From: Escherichia phage vB_EcoS_HdK1
Sequence record: MK373794.1
Length of the DNA: 64,000 nucleotides
Strand: one strand, 5' to 3'
Below, piece by piece: positions 1 to 64,000 of the stretch. The translations under genes and the position numbers were made by a program. The notes beneath the pieces are model-generated. The model was not told the DNA's origin and ran no database searches. It saw only the letters and a list, made by a program, of their open reading frames with translations. Every line of letters starts with the position of its first letter. The first letter of the stretch is position 1.

Positions 1-339
1 ATAAAGGGGTCTCGTGGGGTCGTCAGTAGACAACTCAAAAATAAAAAATCTTTATAAAATTTATATAAATACACACATATACACATTTTTACCTTATTTT
101 TCATGCACTTACCTCCTTTCATTTCGTATATTAAGCGACAATATACGAGCAATATAAGAAATATTTGTTGCGCAACAACGAGGCGCTCACAAGCTCGCGC
201 ACGCGCATAATGCGGGCACGCGGTCTAACACAAAAGAAAATTGAATTGCAAGCGATTTTTGCTGAGGTAACTCTCGAAGCGAAAGCGATTTGCGAGTTTG
301 AAATTTTGTAGCCCGAAAACGATTCTATTTTATGGTATA

Positions 340-660
340 AATGTCGGATTTTTCGGTGAAAGGTGGCTTTTCGGTGAGGTTGGGTGGCTGGGATCGGTGT
401 AACTGGTAGCCCATAAAGCGAAAATAGCCGCGAAAACGGGGCACGCAGCGCGATTAAATGGTTGGATCAGTGTAAGGGTGGCGGTGAGGGGGCGAAAATG
501 CCGCAAAATCGCTTACAGGGATGCAGGGAGTGGGCCGCTGTAAGGGCGTATAAGGCGATTAAATTGGAGTCTATGGTAATGTATGGAAGATGGATTTAGG
601 CTCTTAGAGCGCGAATGGTGGAGCTATGGGTGAGGAATATGTGGTCAGCAGGGTAGCGCG
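340..660. repeat. Non-coding G-rich region with reiterated CGGTGAGG / TGTAAGGG-like short motifs
   Basis: No ORF of 60 aa or more; repeated motifs such as cggtgaaagg, cggtgagg, cagtgtaaggg, ggcggtgaggggg, gctgtaaggg, gggtgagg read directly in the sequence. Confidence 0.5.
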
Positions 661-675
661 GGAGGTTATGCAGGT

Positions 676-714
676 ACAAAAACGAAAGCGCCCCGTTGGA
701 CTTCAACAGGGCGC
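676..714 (-). terminator. Rho-independent terminator candidate downstream of the leftward small-gene operon
   Basis: GC stem gcgccc / gggcgc (688..693 and 709..714) with 15-nt loop; on the minus strand it is followed by a T-rich tract (revcomp of 676..687). Lies just past the stop of CDS 738..986. Confidence 0.4.
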
Positions 715-737
715 GGATTGTATAATGCTTTTAGAAG

Positions 738-986
738 TTATTTACTAGTTAATAATACCGCCCAGGTATTATCTGGAAGCGTACCAACTCCGAGTATCTT
801 AAACTGAAGCGACTTGTTCTGCATGTTGTAGTTGTCGAGTAACTCCTGGGCAGCCGCAGCAGCGTTCGCTTCACCGTTCAGGTTGTAGTCGTTTGCAGTT
901 ATTGCACACATACCGAGACCGACCGCTTTGAAGCGCATACCTTTGGATTGAGTCGGTGCAAGTGCTTTAACATGGATAGCGTTCAT
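738..986 (-). CDS. hypothetical protein (82 aa)
   Basis: ORF with GGAGA Shine-Dalgarno-like sequence upstream of the ATG; balanced composition. Confidence 0.6.
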   Translation of the reverse strand: MNAIHVKALAPTQSKGMRFKAVGLGMCAITANDYNLNGEANAAAAAQELLDNYNMQNKSLQFKILGVGTLPDNTWAVLLTSK

Positions 987-1015
987 ATTATTTATCTCCG
1001 TTACAATTTGAAAGG

Positions 1016-1279
1016 TTAGCAGTTTTTTAACAGGTTGATGAAGCCCACCAGCGTGGACGCTGTTGCAACCAGGCGGCCCATAGTATGCAGTTCCGCGTAA
1101 ACTTTACCGTCGTCAAACACAGTTAAATAAACGTTAAGACCATTGCAACGGACGCGATATTTGCGCGAGTTATTACCAAAAGTTTCCAGCTCTGCGGTGA
1201 TAGTCGCAAGATTAGCTATACGTTTGCCGATAATGCGGCGAGTGATAGTGGACTGGTTTAATACTGTAGACATAATCAT
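1016..1279 (-). CDS. hypothetical small protein (87 aa); paralog of 2588..2893
   Basis: ORF with AGAGGAA RBS; N-terminal motif QSTITRRIIGKR shared with the protein at 2588..2893 (QSQITKRIIGKR). Confidence 0.6.
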   Translation of the reverse strand: MIMSTVLNQSTITRRIIGKRIANLATITAELETFGNNSRKYRVRCNGLNVYLTVFDDGKVYAELHTMGRLVATASTLVGFINLLKNC

Positions 1280-1341
1280 TTCCTCTGTTAACTATGCGAA
1301 GTGCATATTATTGCCCACTGTTACTATGGGCAATGTATATG

Positions 1342-1506
1342 TCACTCAGCGGACACATATTCTAACGCTTCTGATAGTGTAGCGAAGTAACCATCGCTCA
1401 CCAGATTAATAGCGTACTCAAGTTGATCGCGGGTCAGGTTGCGAAACTTGTTACGGATGTGATAGCAACGACCGCGATAAATAACCTGGAAATAGTTGCG
1501 TTCCAT
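1342..1506 (-). CDS. hypothetical small protein (54 aa; ORF-track version 1342..1662 is probably over-extended)
   Basis: Internal ATG at 1506 is preceded by AAGGGGA RBS; the longer ORF overlaps the well-formed gene 1517..1762 in another frame. Confidence 0.4.
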   Translation of the reverse strand: MERNYFQVIYRGRCYHIRNKFRNLTRDQLEYAINLVSDGYFATLSEALEYVSAE

Positions 1507-1516
1507 AATTATCCCC

Positions 1517-1762
1517 TTATGCAACGATGAACGCGTAACCGCTTTGATCCGGGAGTTCACCACCGGAAAGAATTTCAAACTCAACGCCCGCTTTATCGCT
1601 GAACTTTTTGATAAGCTCTTCCGCTGCGGCGCGGTGGTTGCCGTAAACACCAAGATCGTCACGCCACGTGATAGTCAAGGAGCCGTTCCAACCTGTTGCT
1701 TTTACGCGCGGGTTACGGGTGGCAGTCGGGTTCATGAATTTTGTGATGATAGCTTGAGCCAT
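1517..1762 (-). CDS. hypothetical protein (81 aa)
   Basis: ORF with GGAG RBS upstream; protein-like composition. Confidence 0.55.
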   Translation of the reverse strand: MAQAIITKFMNPTATRNPRVKATGWNGSLTITWRDDLGVYGNHRAAAEELIKKFSDKAGVEFEILSGGELPDQSGYAFIVA

Positions 1763-1767
1763 GATAA

Positions 1768-1953
1768 TTACTCCGGTAAAATTACAGTGACGTTAATATT
1801 TGCAAGGCGAGCGCACTCGCGGAAACCTTTTACATAAGCATCCATTTCGTCATAGGATGCGAAAGTTGCGTCCGGGACTGGTCCGTTGTTAATATTCACG
1901 CAATATTCGTGTTCGTCCAGGTCAACCCAACAAGTCAGAACGATAGTTTCCAT
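1768..1953 (-). CDS. hypothetical small protein (61 aa; start at internal ATG)
   Basis: ATG at 1953 preceded by GGAGGG RBS; ORF-track version extends to 1986. Confidence 0.45.
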   Translation of the reverse strand: METIVLTCWVDLDEHEYCVNINNGPVPDATFASYDEMDAYVKGFRECARLANINVTVILPE

Positions 1954-2031
1954 ATTATTTGCCCTCCGTATAATACAGACCCGCAACTATTGGAGCTCCG
2001 AAAACTAAGAAAGCTAATAAATAGAACATAA

Positions 2032-2511
2032 TTAGTTACCCCCTTTATTGTTGAGCCCGTTGAATTTACGCCATGCGTAGAATTCAATCGTTGCATTATT
2101 AATATTCCAACCATTAGCTTTCGCAAGGTCACGGACGTTACCAATAGTTGGCACACCATCAGGCAACATATTATCCAGGGCATTCCAAACGTCTGCGCAT
2201 TTACCTTTAATCGGGCGACGAACCCCGTTGCGCGTTTCGCTGCGCGTTTTGCTCTTGGCTGGAGCGACCGGAGCTTGTTGTGTGGTCACTTCCACGACAG
2301 TCGCTTTATCAGCTTCCACCAGATCGCTAGCTGCCTTATTAACCGCGCTTTCGCTGTACCAGTAGCGACCACCGTCTTCGTGCGGTTCCTGGTGAATAAA
2401 GCTATTTGCTGTCGCAGTGTCCACATCCAGAACCTTTTTTAAGGCACGGCGAGCGTTAGACATAGTGGCGAAGAAGCGAGCGTCTTTTGCTACGCGAGTG
2501 ATAGTAACCAT
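2032..2511 (-). CDS. hypothetical protein (159 aa)
   Basis: ATG at 2511 with GGAGA RBS; ORF-track version 2032..2526. Confidence 0.55.
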   Translation of the reverse strand: MVTITRVAKDARFFATMSNARRALKKVLDVDTATANSFIHQEPHEDGGRYWYSESAVNKAASDLVEADKATVVEVTTQQAPVAPAKSKTRSETRNGVRRPIKGKCADVWNALDNMLPDGVPTIGNVRDLAKANGWNINNATIEFYAWRKFNGLNNKGGN

Positions 2512-2587
2512 TGTGAATATCTCCATGTTGTTCTAGCGGATTGCTAGTGGGAGCCCACTGTTACAATGGGCAACCATTAGCACGCTA

Positions 2588-2893
2588 TTATTGTTGAATA
2601 GCTTTATCTATCATTGCGATGAAGCAGAACACAGACCAAAGGCTATTCGCTTGGCATACTGCGCGACCATACATTACGCTATAAGAGCTGACAGTACCGT
2701 CCTCGTTAATGCGAATATATAACGCGGTGCTGGAATACTTTTCGTTGCCCGGGAGCATTACTAAATACTCGTCGAAACCCCAATCCCCGTCGACTTTTTC
2801 CGCAGTAAGGCCCAGTTGGTGCAGTCGCTTGCCAATAATGCGCTTAGTAATCTGAGATTGGGACATGGAACGCGGTAAGTAGATAATGGACAT
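2588..2893 (-). CDS. hypothetical small protein (101 aa); paralog of 1016..1279
   Basis: ATG at 2893 with AGGGAGA RBS; shares the ITKRIIGKR N-terminal motif with 1016..1279; ORF-track version extends to 3010. Confidence 0.55.
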   Translation of the reverse strand: MSIIYLPRSMSQSQITKRIIGKRLHQLGLTAEKVDGDWGFDEYLVMLPGNEKYSSTALYIRINEDGTVSSYSVMYGRAVCQANSLWSVFCFIAMIDKAIQQ

Positions 2894-2968
2894 AATGCAA
2901 TCTCCCTTCGGGTGAGGCGGGCGCGGAACCCGTGTCCCGCTTAACAACCCCCTTAACCCTACACAGTT

Positions 2969-2997
2969 ATAGTATGACAACGGGGTATCAGATGCAA
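2969..2997 (-). promoter_or_regulatory. sigma70-like promoter candidate driving leftward transcription of 2893..738
   Basis: Minus strand reads TTGCAT-N17-TACTAT (revcomp of 2992..2997 and 2969..2974). Confidence 0.25.
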
Positions 2998-3073
2998 CTA
3001 TTATCTGCAATATTTTAGAACTTTTTTAGTTGTGTTTCATAATAATAACATCCGGGACTATGCGGTAGATGGT

Positions 3074-3147
3074 GTGCCGGAAATACCAGGTAGCGCGAGC
3101 GTGCCGAAAATACCAGGTAACAGCACGCGCCGAACATACCAGGTAGC
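3074..3147. repeat. Three 21-bp direct repeats (iteron-like), consensus GyGCCGrAmATACCAGGTArC
   Basis: gtgccggaaataccaggtagc (3074..3094), gtgccgaaaataccaggtaac (3101..3121), gcgccgaacataccaggtagc (3127..3147); spacing 27 and 26 bp; non-coding region. Confidence 0.6.
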
Positions 3148-3535
3148 ACATACATAGACAGCACATAGTGGGCAGGTGGATAGTAACAGATGCAATTATA
3201 CTGGACGGTACAGTATAGTCATGTAATAGATAGCATACTAATTAAATAAAAAATAATAACGCGTGTAACAATAAACAACGTTACAGTAGAGCGCGCAACA
3301 GTCACATGACGTAACAATCACCTCACTGACGATCACGGGACGTTATAGTAACGCCGCGGGGCGGCTCTTAGATCTCTGCCAAGGATTCTAGACGTAAACA
3401 TTGAATCGCCACTAGACTATTTACATCACAACCTCACTCCTCACACAATAATACATAGAATTTAAATCCGTATATAAATACTCGAGATAGTATCTACATA
3501 TTCGAGGATGAGTGCTCAATCATTGTAGGTTATAA

Positions 3536-4015
3536 ATGCGTATCAATTGGTGTGATTATTTCTCTTACGAAGATGGTAGACTTTACTGGAAGGCCAGTAG
3601 AGGAAGAATACGAGTAGGTTCAGAAGCCGGAAGCGAGGACCAACAAGGTTACATTGTGGTCAGGTTAAACGGGAAAGATTATAAAGCCCACCGCATCATT
3701 TGGGAAATGCACTATGGGCCGATACCAGAAGGAATGGAAGTTGACCACATTTGGCATAACCGAAAAGATAACCGGATTGAGAATCTGCGGTTAGTGACGC
3801 GTACAGGTAATGGGCGTAATCAGTCTAAATTTGCGACAAATACATCAGGTGTAACTGGTGTGAATTGGAATAGCCGGGCTGGTAAATGGAGAGCGGAAAT
3901 TTATGTTGATGGAAAGCATATATCTCTTGGTTTATTCACAATCTTTAATGATGCTGTCTTAGCGCGTAAATCGGCCGAGGCTAAGTATGGTTTCCATAAA
4001 AATCATGGCGAGTGA
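3536..4015 (+). CDS. HNH homing endonuclease with AP2 DNA-binding domain
   Basis: HNH motif EVDHIWHNRKDNRIENL; AP2-like segment GVTGVNWNSRAGKWRAEIYVDGKHISLGLF. Confidence 0.8.
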   Translation: MRINWCDYFSYEDGRLYWKASRGRIRVGSEAGSEDQQGYIVVRLNGKDYKAHRIIWEMHYGPIPEGMEVDHIWHNRKDNRIENLRLVTRTGNGRNQSKFATNTSGVTGVNWNSRAGKWRAEIYVDGKHISLGLFTIFNDAVLARKSAEAKYGFHKNHGE

Positions 4016-59175: not shown

Positions 59176-59505
59176 TTAATTTGCATGTTCACCTCGAAGC
59201 AGACGCTCGAGCTTCGATTTATTTTTGATAAGCTGATATTGCCGATCCACCACAAGCGCCTTCTGACGGTTACGCATAAGGTATTCGAACGCACTTTGAA
59301 AATCTTCGACTTTACCTTCATAACCTAAAGCCTTGGCGACGTGCGACACGCGATGGAACAGAAAGTCCGCAAAGTCCATAATTTCCATCGCATTGACAAT
59401 AGCGTCAAGTAAATCAGGATTTATATTCGGGTCCACCTTTTTAGCTTGTTCAAGAAGTCGCACCTTTGCTTTATATAAAGGTGAATTGCTTACTGTTTGC
59501 ATCAC
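59176..59505 (-). CDS. hypothetical protein (109 aa)
   Basis: ORF in the early-gene array. Confidence 0.45.
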   Translation of the reverse strand: MMQTVSNSPLYKAKVRLLEQAKKVDPNINPDLLDAIVNAMEIMDFADFLFHRVSHVAKALGYEGKVEDFQSAFEYLMRNRQKALVVDRQYQLIKNKSKLERLLRGEHAN

Positions 59506-59771
59506 TTCCTCCAGATATCACGCGATTCTTTAATACGGATGTTATACCGTATAAGTTGCTGCATAACTTTATGCAGGTCATCGAGATGCTTCCTTAAACG
59601 AAGACGTTTCTTGATAGCCCACAAGTTCTTCATATCCGTTCGTTGGAGATCCTCCCTTAAATACAATGAAAAGTCAGTCTGGTGATCTAAGATAAATTGG
59701 ATACGCATCAAAGTATCCGACTTACGATAATCAGGATACCACTTAGGAAGCACATCTTGTTCGCCAATCAT
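59502..59771 (-). CDS. hypothetical protein (90 aa)
   Basis: ATG at 59771 with GGAG RBS; corresponds to the C-terminal third of ORF-track 59502..60278, which appears chimeric. Confidence 0.45.
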   Translation of the reverse strand: MIGEQDVLPKWYPDYRKSDTLMRIQFILDHQTDFSLYLREDLQRTDMKNLWAIKKRLRLRKHLDDLHKVMQQLIRYNIRIKESRDIWRK

Positions 59772-59772
59772 C

Positions 59773-60393
59773 TTACGCTCCAAACTGATCAATGTATTCA
59801 ATGAGCTCTTGCAATTCTTGCTGTAACTGCACATTACCACTATTATTCGTCTGAAGTCTAACGAGGCGTTCCTTGATATGTGCAATGTGGTTAGTGCCCA
59901 TCCGACGCTTCTGTACATCACACCAGCGAACAACACCATCTTCAATATATGCACGACGGGCTTTACCACGCGGGTATCGCAGCGGCGCCGAATTTCACAC
60001 TTATCGCCCACCCACTTAAAGCCCAGGATCATAACAGCGTTACCTTCCGTATCAGGACACACGTCAAAACAACTGTTGAACCCTTTACTGCGCATATACT
60101 CGTCGAGCGGAATCACCTTATCAGGCGACAACCATTGATACCCGAAGTAAATATCGACAGTGAACACCGTACCCAACATCGGAGCCGACCAGCACATATA
60201 CATCCGCCCGTCATCCAACTTCTTGACCGCATTCGGCCCGCAACACGAGGCCAGCCGCCTTCCACGCTTTGACCACATTAATCGTGTTGTCCTGCTCCTG
60301 AAAGATTGCGTCTGCCTGCATATATGTAGGCGCGTCCCAGCCCGAACATTTCCTTTACATGAGCATTAGTGATTTTAACCTTTTGATTGCGCA
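59773..60393 (-). CDS. hypothetical early protein, frameshifted (at least 2 frame changes)
   Basis: ATG at 60393 (MRNQKVKITNAHVKEMFGLGRAYIYAGR...) stops after 38 codons; protein-like sequence continues in two other frames down to a stop at 59773. Confidence 0.4.
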
Positions 60394-60446
60394 TAACCTC
60401 ACCTTTGATGATAATAAATCGATTAATTTTGAAATTCAGTTGCCGG

Positions 60447-60474
60447 TTTTATGTTTATTTTACGCAATGTGTTT
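60447..60474 (-). promoter_or_regulatory. sigma70-like promoter candidate for the leftward early operon
   Basis: Minus strand reads TTGTAT-N16-TAAAAT (revcomp of 60469..60474 and 60447..60452), about 50 nt upstream of the ATG at 60393. Confidence 0.35.
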
Positions 60475-60600
60475 TGCAATACAATATTGATATATTTTGT
60501 TTTTGCATTGCAATGTTTTTGTATTGCAAAAATTACAACAGTCTGAAGGTGAGAAATTGCAAATTTATAAAGATTGGTGAAAAAATGCACAATTTATAAA
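60455..60600. repeat. Cluster of TTGCAA / TTGCAAT palindromic half-sites and duplicated AATTTATAAAGATT element
   Basis: ttttgcaatacaat, tttgcattgcaatg, tgtattgcaaaaa, aaattgcaaattt; aatttataaagatt occurs twice (about 60562 and 60590). Confidence 0.5.
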
Positions 60601-60692
60601 GATTCAGCAATATACGAAACGGCGAAGCGAAGTGTATGAAAAATAAGGGAAAATTTCGAGAGTTGGGAGGTTTGTAGTGATTTATATTATTT

Positions 60693-63600
60693 ATAAAGGG
60701 GTCTCGTGGGGTCGTCAGTAGACAACTCAAAAATAAAAAATCTTTATAAAATTTATATAAATACACACATATACACATTTTTACCTTATTTTTCATGCAC
60801 TTACCTCCTTTCATTTCGTATATTAAGCGACAATATACGAGCAATATAAGAAATATTTGTTGCGCAACAACGAGGCGCTCACAAGCTCGCGCACGCGCAT
60901 AATGCGGGCACGCGGTCTAACACAAAAGAAAATTGAATTGCAAGCGATTTTTGCTGAGGTAACTCTCGAAGCGAAAGCGATTTGCGAGTTTGAAATTTTG
61001 TAGCCCGAAAACGATTCTATTTTATGGTATAAATGTCGGATTTTTCGGTGAAAGGTGGCTTTTCGGTGAGGTTGGGTGGCTGGGATCGGTGTAACTGGTA
61101 GCCCATAAAGCGAAAATAGCCGCGAAAACGGGGCACGCAGCGCGATTAAATGGTTGGATCAGTGTAAGGGTGGCGGTGAGGGGGCGAAAATGCCGCAAAA
61201 TCGCTTACAGGGATGCAGGGAGTGGGCCGCTGTAAGGGCGTATAAGGCGATTAAATTGGAGTCTATGGTAATGTATGGAAGATGGATTTAGGCTCTTAGA
61301 GCGCGAATGGTGGAGCTATGGGTGAGGAATATGTGGTCAGCAGGGTAGCGCGGGAGGTTATGCAGGTACAAAAACGAAAGCGCCCCGTTGGACTTCAACA
61401 GGGCGCGGATTGTATAATGCTTTTAGAAGTTATTTACTAGTTAATAATACCGCCCAGGTATTATCTGGAAGCGTACCAACTCCGAGTATCTTAAACTGAA
61501 GCGACTTGTTCTGCATGTTGTAGTTGTCGAGTAACTCCTGGGCAGCCGCAGCAGCGTTCGCTTCACCGTTCAGGTTGTAGTCGTTTGCAGTTATTGCACA
61601 CATACCGAGACCGACCGCTTTGAAGCGCATACCTTTGGATTGAGTCGGTGCAAGTGCTTTAACATGGATAGCGTTCATATTATTTATCTCCGTTACAATT
61701 TGAAAGGTTAGCAGTTTTTTAACAGGTTGATGAAGCCCACCAGCGTGGACGCTGTTGCAACCAGGCGGCCCATAGTATGCAGTTCCGCGTAAACTTTACC
61801 GTCGTCAAACACAGTTAAATAAACGTTAAGACCATTGCAACGGACGCGATATTTGCGCGAGTTATTACCAAAAGTTTCCAGCTCTGCGGTGATAGTCGCA
61901 AGATTAGCTATACGTTTGCCGATAATGCGGCGAGTGATAGTGGACTGGTTTAATACTGTAGACATAATCATTTCCTCTGTTAACTATGCGAAGTGCATAT
62001 TATTGCCCACTGTTACTATGGGCAATGTATATGTCACTCAGCGGACACATATTCTAACGCTTCTGATAGTGTAGCGAAGTAACCATCGCTCACCAGATTA
62101 ATAGCGTACTCAAGTTGATCGCGGGTCAGGTTGCGAAACTTGTTACGGATGTGATAGCAACGACCGCGATAAATAACCTGGAAATAGTTGCGTTCCATAA
62201 TTATCCCCTTATGCAACGATGAACGCGTAACCGCTTTGATCCGGGAGTTCACCACCGGAAAGAATTTCAAACTCAACGCCCGCTTTATCGCTGAACTTTT
62301 TGATAAGCTCTTCCGCTGCGGCGCGGTGGTTGCCGTAAACACCAAGATCGTCACGCCACGTGATAGTCAAGGAGCCGTTCCAACCTGTTGCTTTTACGCG
62401 CGGGTTACGGGTGGCAGTCGGGTTCATGAATTTTGTGATGATAGCTTGAGCCATGATAATTACTCCGGTAAAATTACAGTGACGTTAATATTTGCAAGGC
62501 GAGCGCACTCGCGGAAACCTTTTACATAAGCATCCATTTCGTCATAGGATGCGAAAGTTGCGTCCGGGACTGGTCCGTTGTTAATATTCACGCAATATTC
62601 GTGTTCGTCCAGGTCAACCCAACAAGTCAGAACGATAGTTTCCATATTATTTGCCCTCCGTATAATACAGACCCGCAACTATTGGAGCTCCGAAAACTAA
62701 GAAAGCTAATAAATAGAACATAATTAGTTACCCCCTTTATTGTTGAGCCCGTTGAATTTACGCCATGCGTAGAATTCAATCGTTGCATTATTAATATTCC
62801 AACCATTAGCTTTCGCAAGGTCACGGACGTTACCAATAGTTGGCACACCATCAGGCAACATATTATCCAGGGCATTCCAAACGTCTGCGCATTTACCTTT
62901 AATCGGGCGACGAACCCCGTTGCGCGTTTCGCTGCGCGTTTTGCTCTTGGCTGGAGCGACCGGAGCTTGTTGTGTGGTCACTTCCACGACAGTCGCTTTA
63001 TCAGCTTCCACCAGATCGCTAGCTGCCTTATTAACCGCGCTTTCGCTGTACCAGTAGCGACCACCGTCTTCGTGCGGTTCCTGGTGAATAAAGCTATTTG
63101 CTGTCGCAGTGTCCACATCCAGAACCTTTTTTAAGGCACGGCGAGCGTTAGACATAGTGGCGAAGAAGCGAGCGTCTTTTGCTACGCGAGTGATAGTAAC
63201 CATTGTGAATATCTCCATGTTGTTCTAGCGGATTGCTAGTGGGAGCCCACTGTTACAATGGGCAACCATTAGCACGCTATTATTGTTGAATAGCTTTATC
63301 TATCATTGCGATGAAGCAGAACACAGACCAAAGGCTATTCGCTTGGCATACTGCGCGACCATACATTACGCTATAAGAGCTGACAGTACCGTCCTCGTTA
63401 ATGCGAATATATAACGCGGTGCTGGAATACTTTTCGTTGCCCGGGAGCATTACTAAATACTCGTCGAAACCCCAATCCCCGTCGACTTTTTCCGCAGTAA
63501 GGCCCAGTTGGTGCAGTCGCTTGCCAATAATGCGCTTAGTAATCTGAGATTGGGACATGGAACGCGGTAAGTAGATAATGGACATAATGCAATCTCCCTT

Positions 63601-64000
63601 CGGGTGAGGCGGGCGCGGAACCCGTGTCCCGCTTAACAACCCCCTTAACCCTACACAGTTATAGTATGACAACGGGGTATCAGATGCAACTATTATCTGC
63701 AATATTTTAGAACTTTTTTAGTTGTGTTTCATAATAATAACATCCGGGACTATGCGGTAGATGGTGTGCCGGAAATACCAGGTAGCGCGAGCGTGCCGAA
63801 AATACCAGGTAACAGCACGCGCCGAACATACCAGGTAGCACATACATAGACAGCACATAGTGGGCAGGTGGATAGTAACAGATGCAATTATACTGGACGG
63901 TACAGTATAGTCATGTAATAGATAGCATACTAATTAAATAAAAAATAATAACGCGTGTAACAATAAACAACGTTACAGTAGAGCGCGCAACAGTCACATG
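60693..64000. repeat. Window-end exact duplication, copy 2 (identical to 1..3308); contains duplicate copies of the small minus-strand early genes
   Basis: Same as copy 1; all ORFs at 61430..63702 duplicate those at 738..3010. Not re-listed individually. Confidence 0.9.

Follow-up and report, generated by a model that had tools for sequence, protein, structure and literature searches.

A putative sigma70-like promoter beside a candidate packaging signal at the left DNA end of Escherichia phage vB_EcoS_HdK1

Introduction

Phages of the genus Nonagvirus and the subfamily Queuovirinae are widely used, in the BASEL collection and in work on DNA-modification defence, and their genome ends and control regions are undescribed. 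The question addressed here is what function resides in a short stretch (positions 60455-60600) of Escherichia phage vB_EcoS_HdK1 (sequence record MK373794.1), in which TTGCAA sites and a duplicated 14-bp element occur near a promoter-like sequence, and which a first-pass annotation had read as an operator array controlling early leftward transcription. All positions refer to the window, that is, the entire 64,000-nt DNA stretch analysed. The window shares 86-94% identity with 9g-like coliphages (genus Nonagvirus, subfamily Queuovirinae). It was compared with 12 relatives, giving a set of 13 sequences, and with five metagenomic contigs. An exact-word scan of viral contigs returned members of the same genus only, a range within which no deeper comparison is possible, and the protein encoded by the first gene of the adjacent operon is genus-specific and thus unusable as an anchor for comparison with Seuratvirus.

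Results

Leftward transcription into the replication operon

All genes between 34368 and 63702 are encoded on the minus strand. The stretch in question belongs to a spacer of ~1 kb (60395-61430) that lacks a consistently annotated coding sequence in the relatives, and is located 60-200 bp upstream of the first gene of a replication operon and 90-240 bp to the left of the boundary of a direct terminal repeat (DTR). The elements that bear on leftward transcription are:

61380-61406, minus strand: intrinsic terminator of the leftward unit of small DTR genes; 11-bp stem with 8 G-C pairs, and a T-run
60457-60484, minus strand: putative sigma70-like promoter of the replication operon; -35 TTGTAT (60484-60479), 16-nt spacer, -10 TAAAAT (60462-60457)
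60426-60444, no strand assigned: invariant block ATTTTGAAATTCAGTTGCC, shared by all 13 sequences; part of the 5' leader predicted for the leftward transcript

The terminator (61406-61380), in which 96% of the alignment columns are invariant and which is annotated as such in HdSG1 and SP8, closes the small-gene unit, so that the operon beginning at 60394 needs a promoter of its own. That operon had been termed early; it is not the first to be transcribed and follows the small DTR genes.

The predicted TTGTAT-N16-TAAAAT sequence is indeed present on the minus strand, and is the top-scoring sigma70-like site of that strand within 60380-61450 (10.7 bits). It stands 63 nt upstream of the first ATG of the operon (60394), which is preceded by the Shine-Dalgarno sequence GGTGAGG. 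The match is ordinary in strength, as 51 sites genome-wide, mostly inside genes, score at least 10.7 bits, and a simple scan of 59500-62000 revealed no excess of promoter-like sites over shuffled sequences. Each of the 12 relatives has a promoter-like site in the corresponding position, at a distance of 57-63 nt from the ATG, and two haplotypes are seen: TTGCAA-17-TAAATT (12.6 bits) in ten of them, and TTGCAT-17-AAAAAT in HdSG1 and ESCO3. The retention of a promoter through this sequence swap, with a terminator upstream and an operon downstream, provides good circumstantial evidence, and leftward transcription of the replication and nucleotide-metabolism operon probably starts anew here from a host sigma70 promoter. 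No transcript mapping for Nonagvirus or Queuovirinae phages was encountered in the titles and abstracts of the literature searched.

The ATTTTGAAATTCAGTTGCC block also holds the -35 hexamer (TTGAAA, 60429) of a conserved promoter-like site on the plus strand, TTGAAA-15/16-TATGTT/TAATTT, which scores 11.4 bits in 12 of the 13 sequences. The first operon gene itself (59990-60394, minus strand) is interrupted by three insertions that shift the reading frame when compared with its counterparts in HdSG1 and the remaining relatives, whose products comprise 205-206 amino acids. The extra bases are located at ~60343 and ~60239, both within G runs, with two more at ~59990-59991, a pattern that fits homopolymer errors of PacBio sequencing or a pseudogene.

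DNA ends and the direct terminal repeat

Self-comparison showed that the first 3308 nt of the window recur, base for base, near its right end:

60693-64000, no strand assigned: right DTR copy, cut by the window end and identical to window 1-3308

The exact repeat implies a unique genome of 60,692 bp, with the terminal repeat included in the record. By homology with HdSG1, the full DTR measures ~3.37 kb and ends at the equivalent of window position 3367. HdSG1, the closest deposited relative (63,595 bp, linear), carries two 3363-bp DTR copies in which no base differs. Its record starts with TTTATAAAGGGGTC (opening letters TTTATAAAGGGG), equivalent to window position 60690 and 3 nt apart from the start of the window's record, and it ends in GCGGGGCGGCTC, equivalent to 3367. 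For phage 9g, a single hot spot of read starts was reported at 28,243, and a terminal repeat of unknown size was inferred (PMC4276943). This hot spot coincides exactly with the last base of the HdSG1 record, which lends independent support to the right end as well as to the reliability of record ends. This right-end hot spot is the sole one in the 9g paper, which lists none for the left boundary (PMC4276943). The left DTR boundary is taken as the physical left end, at 60692/60693 within about 3 nt, on the basis of the ends of GenBank records that derive from PacBio assemblies of one laboratory. According to Korf et al., PacBio reads were used to assemble some of their phages, and genomes of Nonagvirus reach up to 64 kb (PMC6563267). 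The DTRs of a related Queuovirinae phage, whose TerL clusters with that of Nonagvirus, were determined experimentally (PMC10484667). The DTR is absent from most deposited Nonagvirus genomes (56.7-60.7 kb), and no description of a ~3.37-kb Nonagvirus DTR was found in the literature searched.

Several further features of the DTR were observed. The small DTR genes include two paralogue pairs (61430-61678 with 62209-62454, and 61708-61971 with 63280-63585), which are assigned to PHROG 3199 (twice) and PHROG 13865 (twice), of unknown function and without a Pfam match. A non-coding part of the DTR of ~460 bp (60916-61379) is 77% invariant with 93% pairwise identity, above the level of the neighbouring genes, and contains repeated GATCnGTGTAAGGG, GCGATTAAAT, TTTTCGGTGA and CGAAAA elements. 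Within it, 60995-61025 is 97% invariant. This part may serve as an origin, an RNA or a packaging element. In JenP1, a gene for a homing (HNH) endonuclease is inserted in the conserved non-coding part (JenP1 1109-1409, corresponding to window ~61200). Three direct GCCGRAMATACCAGGTARC repeats with a 26-bp period occupy the divergent early/late promoter region in the DTR (window 3077-3147, equal to 63769-63839). These repeats resemble iterons or operators, and would make a more convincing candidate operator array than 60455-60600.

A repeat family centred on the left end

Both copies of the duplicated 14-bp element, AATTTATAAAGATT, noted in the first-pass annotation are exact (60562-60575 and 60591-60604). 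The second runs 4 nt beyond position 60600 and lies 88 bp to the left of the DTR boundary. The annotation had overlooked a third copy of the 10-mer core, ATTTATAAAG, and an inverted copy of the 14-mer, which extend the series to the DNA end and past it:

60548-60575 and 60576-60604, plus strand: tandem 28/29-bp repeat, GGTGA(G/A)AAA(A)T(T)GCA(A/C)AATTTATAAAGATT, with the 14-mers as its 3' parts
60689-60698, plus strand: third ATTTATAAAG copy, spanning the left DTR boundary at 60692/60693
60739-60752, minus strand: inverted 14-mer copy ATTTTATAAAGATT, one mismatch, 47-60 bp inside the DTR and nearly invariant in relatives

Both tandem repeats end in ATTTATAAAGATT. The core occurs three times in 64 kb (at 60563, 60592 and 60689-60698; 0.18 copies expected), each time within the same 136 bp. 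The TTTATAAAG(A/G) family has four members: two direct copies outside the DTR, one on the cut and one inverted inside. The repeats are invariant among relatives, and their copies show no co-variation to test. The position of the third copy on the physical DNA end makes it more likely that the repeat serves DNA cutting and packaging than gene repression. The 14-bp elements had been thought to overlap the promoter; they are located 78-120 bp upstream of its -35 hexamer, and the element is absent from every other promoter region of the genome. When judged by eye as a -10 or -35 element, the 14-mer was rejected, as its spacings are wrong and its TATAAA lacks a final T.

The right DTR end, ...ACGTTATAGTAACGCCGCGGGGCGGCTC (window 3342-3367), sits in a GC-rich hairpin, GCCGC-GGG-GCGGC. 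There is no copy of ATTTATAAAG at this boundary, so the motif cannot account for both cuts. The only words common to the left and right boundaries are two AT-rich 11-mers of doubtful meaning. With no motif in common, the left and right ends probably arise in different ways.

The palindrome around the boundary

All copies of the repeat family are found in or beside a large imperfect palindrome, the components of which (no strand assigned) are:

60609-60824: nested imperfect palindrome, 215 bp, centred near 60716, around the DNA end
60609-60619 and 60814-60824: outer arms
60630-60653 and 60779-60802: middle arms
60680-60698 and 60742-60762: inner arms

Its centre contains GGGGTC twice (60698-60703 and 60708-60713). 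As single-stranded DNA, the palindrome folds better than shuffled sequences (z = -5.1). Of its 62 predicted pairs, 21 vary among relatives, with only one compensatory change, which indicates that it is the sequence of the arms that is maintained, as expected for protein sites, and not a hairpin. A hairpin or cruciform under selection was rejected on these grounds, the good fold being unaccompanied by covariation. The fold of 60455-60600 showed no structure beyond chance relative to shuffles (z = -0.47), and an Rfam search of 60200-61700 returned only sub-threshold chance hits (mir-4703, 27.7 bits compared with the 88 needed).

The palindrome is flanked by the direct repeats AGCAATATACGAAA (60606-60619) and GACAATATACGAGC (60829-60842). 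Both are altered jointly (AATACAT) in HdSG1, FritzHoffmann, ChristophMerian and L021, and are not so altered in 9g, JenK1, ESCO3 and JenP1, which suggests gene conversion or a mobile-element-like footprint. On the minus strand, a perfect AAGGAGG-N7-ATG (MKNK...) is present in the right arm (60779-60824); ATGAAAAATAAGG recurs in the left arm, where a ribosome-binding site is missing. As the frame downstream of the right-arm ATG is not conserved, both arms may have arisen from duplication of the start of a gene. As a coding sequence, the small minus-strand ORF (ATG 60796, strong AAGGAGG) was rejected because single-nucleotide indels break its frame after a few codons. Such indels occur even among close relatives, and annotators disagree on this ORF.

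Conservation divides the stretch into two parts

Positions 60496 to ~60830 form a single block that is better conserved than the flanking genes in the 12 relatives and the five metagenomic contigs. Over 60532-60605, invariant columns make up 84% and pairwise identity reaches 95%, compared with 60-62% and 82-86% for the flanking coding sequences; over 60695-60815, 87-93% of the columns are invariant per 30-nt bin. Taken as a whole, the candidate terminus signal has 81-93% invariant columns vs. the 60-62% of the flanking coding sequences. The interval 60450-60531 as a whole is 60% invariant and no better conserved than coding DNA. Two haplotypes, that of the window, HdSG1 and ESCO3 and that of the rest, extend over ~60280-60495, which covers the 5' end of the first gene and the core promoter. 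The core promoter (~60445-60495) is thus represented by two divergent versions, each with good -35 and -10 hexamers. Conservation splits 60455-60600 into a core promoter and a terminus-associated block. The most variable part of the spacer, 60845-60905, adjoins the conserved palindrome; it is 23% invariant and exists in three unrelated versions.

TTGCAA sites and the operator reading

The four TTGCAA hexamers are confirmed (60474, 60508, 60524 and 60557), with spacings of 34, 16 and 33 bp (no strand assigned):

60474-60479: TTGCAA hexamer S1
60508-60513: TTGCAA hexamer S2
60524-60529: TTGCAA hexamer S3
60557-60562: TTGCAA hexamer S4

The reading that these palindromes, together with the 14-bp repeats, bind a phage or host repressor or activator controlling the leftward promoter is considered unlikely. 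In its favor, TTGCAA is locally enriched, with four occurrences in 146 bp, where dinucleotide-shuffled versions of this AT-rich sequence would give 0.96 (P about 0.005); over 60395-60692, the expectation is 0.52 (P about 0.001). The sites are also conserved: TGCAA recurs at the same four offsets in relatives, at S1-S3 in 13 of 13 sequences and at S4 in seven, as TTGCAA, and this retention makes protein binding there possible. The remaining six genomes have TTGTAC at S4, which counts against an operator. As regards the supposed overlap with the promoter, S1 abuts the -35 hexamer and forms it in relatives; S2-S4 begin 24 bp or more upstream and belong to the conserved block, and S2-S4 and the 14-mers together lie 24-120 bp upstream of the -35 hexamer. 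A perfect 13-nt inverted repeat surrounds S1 and S3 in the window's haplotype, to which it is limited. The 14-mers weigh against regulation of this promoter, given their distance of 78-120 bp and the position of the other family copies on and beyond the genome end; their membership in a four-copy family centred on 60692/60693 does not fit a single operator array. Neither TTGCAA nor the 14-mer occurs in the divergent early/late promoter region (3010-3536). Phage-encoded regulators were expected by the 9g authors (PMC4276943), yet the search for one returned no candidate, as the 10 neighbouring and DTR proteins contain no Pfam domain, DNA-binding domains included, and all of them fall into PHROG families without an assigned function.

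Discussion

A promoter beside a candidate packaging signal

The preferred reading, to which about an even chance of being correct is assigned, is that a sigma70 promoter for the leftward replication operon stands beside a terminus-associated signal for recognition and cleavage in DTR packaging. The candidate signal is located at the repeat boundary itself, its candidate recognition elements flank the cut, no further exact copies of the 10-mer core exist in 64 kb, and the right end is independently backed by the 9g read mapping. In the proposed mechanism, terminase, probably via its small subunit, would recognize the TTTATAAAG(A/G) repeats and the inverted arms on either side of the boundary on concatemers. 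Cleavage within the boundary ATTTATAAAG copy would generate the left end, from which packaging would proceed rightward. The right-end cut, 3.37 kb away, would be made in another sequence (...GCCGCGGGGCGGCTC), which would leave the DTR in two copies. In the least supported step of this scheme, a host or phage protein may bind the TGCAA hexamers and tie promoter activity to the junction. Entry of the right end into the cell first would present the DTR genes, the replication genes and the late genes in that order, and entry by either end would bring in a DTR copy first. As a usual rule, the DNA packaged last is ejected first. In the 9g paper, the early region is proposed to leave the virion first (PMC4276943). 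Under the last-in-first-out rule, packaging would then start at the left boundary, which is the expected place of a recognition site.

A more comprehensive version is put forward tentatively, and is somewhat doubtful. Here, 60496-60830 would constitute a complete left-end maturation site consisting of the TGCAA sites, the 28/29-bp repeats, the boundary ATTTATAAAG, the inverted copy and the 215-bp palindrome. The terminase would read an AT-only motif, devoid of the guanines that the phage modifies to 2'-deoxyarchaeosine, and promoter and junction would be functionally linked, in that end formation might be aided, for instance, when the junction is transcribed or bound by a protein. In T7, such transcription or protein binding has reportedly been proposed to help end formation.

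Alternative functions of the region

A replication origin, in which an AT-rich unwinding element and iteron-like repeats lie beside the primase-helicase/polymerase operon, is improbable. The interval 60400-60700 is the genome's lowest-GC 300-nt window (28.7% vs. 44%), which fits an origin equally well; the TGCAA and 28/29-bp repeats, the large palindrome, the location directly upstream of the replication operon and conservation above the coding level all agree with this possibility. However, scans of the spacer for the DnaA box (TTWTNCACA) and the IHF consensus gave no match, and the lack of a DnaA box argues against an origin, as does the placement of the repeat family around the DNA end instead of an AT-rich core. 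Cumulative GC skew is dominated by gene orientation and uninformative on this point.

There is a slim chance that the palindrome-repeat block acts as a T5-like injection stop, or first-step-transfer boundary, at which DNA entry pauses until the DTR genes are expressed. First-step transfer and a stop signal are documented for T5 in PMC13250531, which cites Heusterspreute 1987. Both layouts have a long DTR whose small genes lack an assigned function, and non-coding DNA rich in repeats comes next; nevertheless, the DTR is short here (3.4 kb), and such a stop leaves unexplained why a repeat copy coincides with the cut. That the repeats are functionless relics of local duplication in an AT-rich spacer is highly improbable, because the block is conserved above its neighbouring genes in 12 relatives and five metagenomic contigs and a motif copy coincides with the genome end, even though the two ~45-nt inverted modules resemble duplicates of the 5' end of a gene, of which the right arm alone has AAGGAGG-N7-ATG.

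Significance

With the left end placed within a conserved repeat family, the reading of a promoter beside a packaging signal supplies a concrete candidate for each of the two elements, the packaging signal and the promoter of the replication operon. These would be of use in genome annotation, in phage engineering, where it matters what the ends must keep, and in the timing of early expression. If the maturation-site reading is true, Queuovirinae would have a defined, mutable packaging signal. The locus also illustrates that an operator-like repeat cluster near a promoter can belong to a DNA end instead.

Comparison with known systems

The type of element is already known, and the present instance is undescribed. 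The closest analogy is the concatemer junction of T7 and T3, where exact DTRs adjoin packaging signals and arrays of short repeats; these facts are said to go back to Dunn and Studier in 1983 and to the packaging studies of Fujisawa and of Hinkle. HdK1 resembles this junction in its exact DTRs, sequence-defined ends, short repeats just outside and inside the boundary, a promoter close to the junction, and left and right cuts at different sequences. In contrast to the 160-230-bp non-coding repeats of T7 and T3, the DTR here is 3.37 kb long with about 7 genes. Moreover, HdK1 is a siphovirus, its DNA carries 7-deazaguanine modifications and its genes are transcribed by the host RNA polymerase, and there is no sequence similarity.

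In lambda cos (cosQ-cosN-cosB) and SPP1 pac (pacL-pacC-pacR), repeats that bind the small terminase flank the cleavage site. The HdK1 locus is similar in having a short element, both direct and inverted, on both sides of the cut, within an AT-rich and probably bent region. It differs in that those phages have cohesive or headful-permuted ends, whereas long exact DTRs are found here, and in that the motifs are unrelated; binding at the HdK1 repeats is, unlike in these two systems, inferred only.

With T5, as cited in PMC13250531, HdK1 shares a long DTR with small early genes followed by non-coding direct and inverted repeats. The DTR here is three times shorter, and the repeat block is at the cut itself. 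Finally, the leftward promoter resembles sigma70 early promoters of phages in its -35 and -10 hexamers at 16-17 nt, T-rich upstream DNA, 57-63-nt leader and Shine-Dalgarno sequence; it differs from them in that its consensus strength is unremarkable and its core is swapped between haplotypes along with the 5' end of the first gene.
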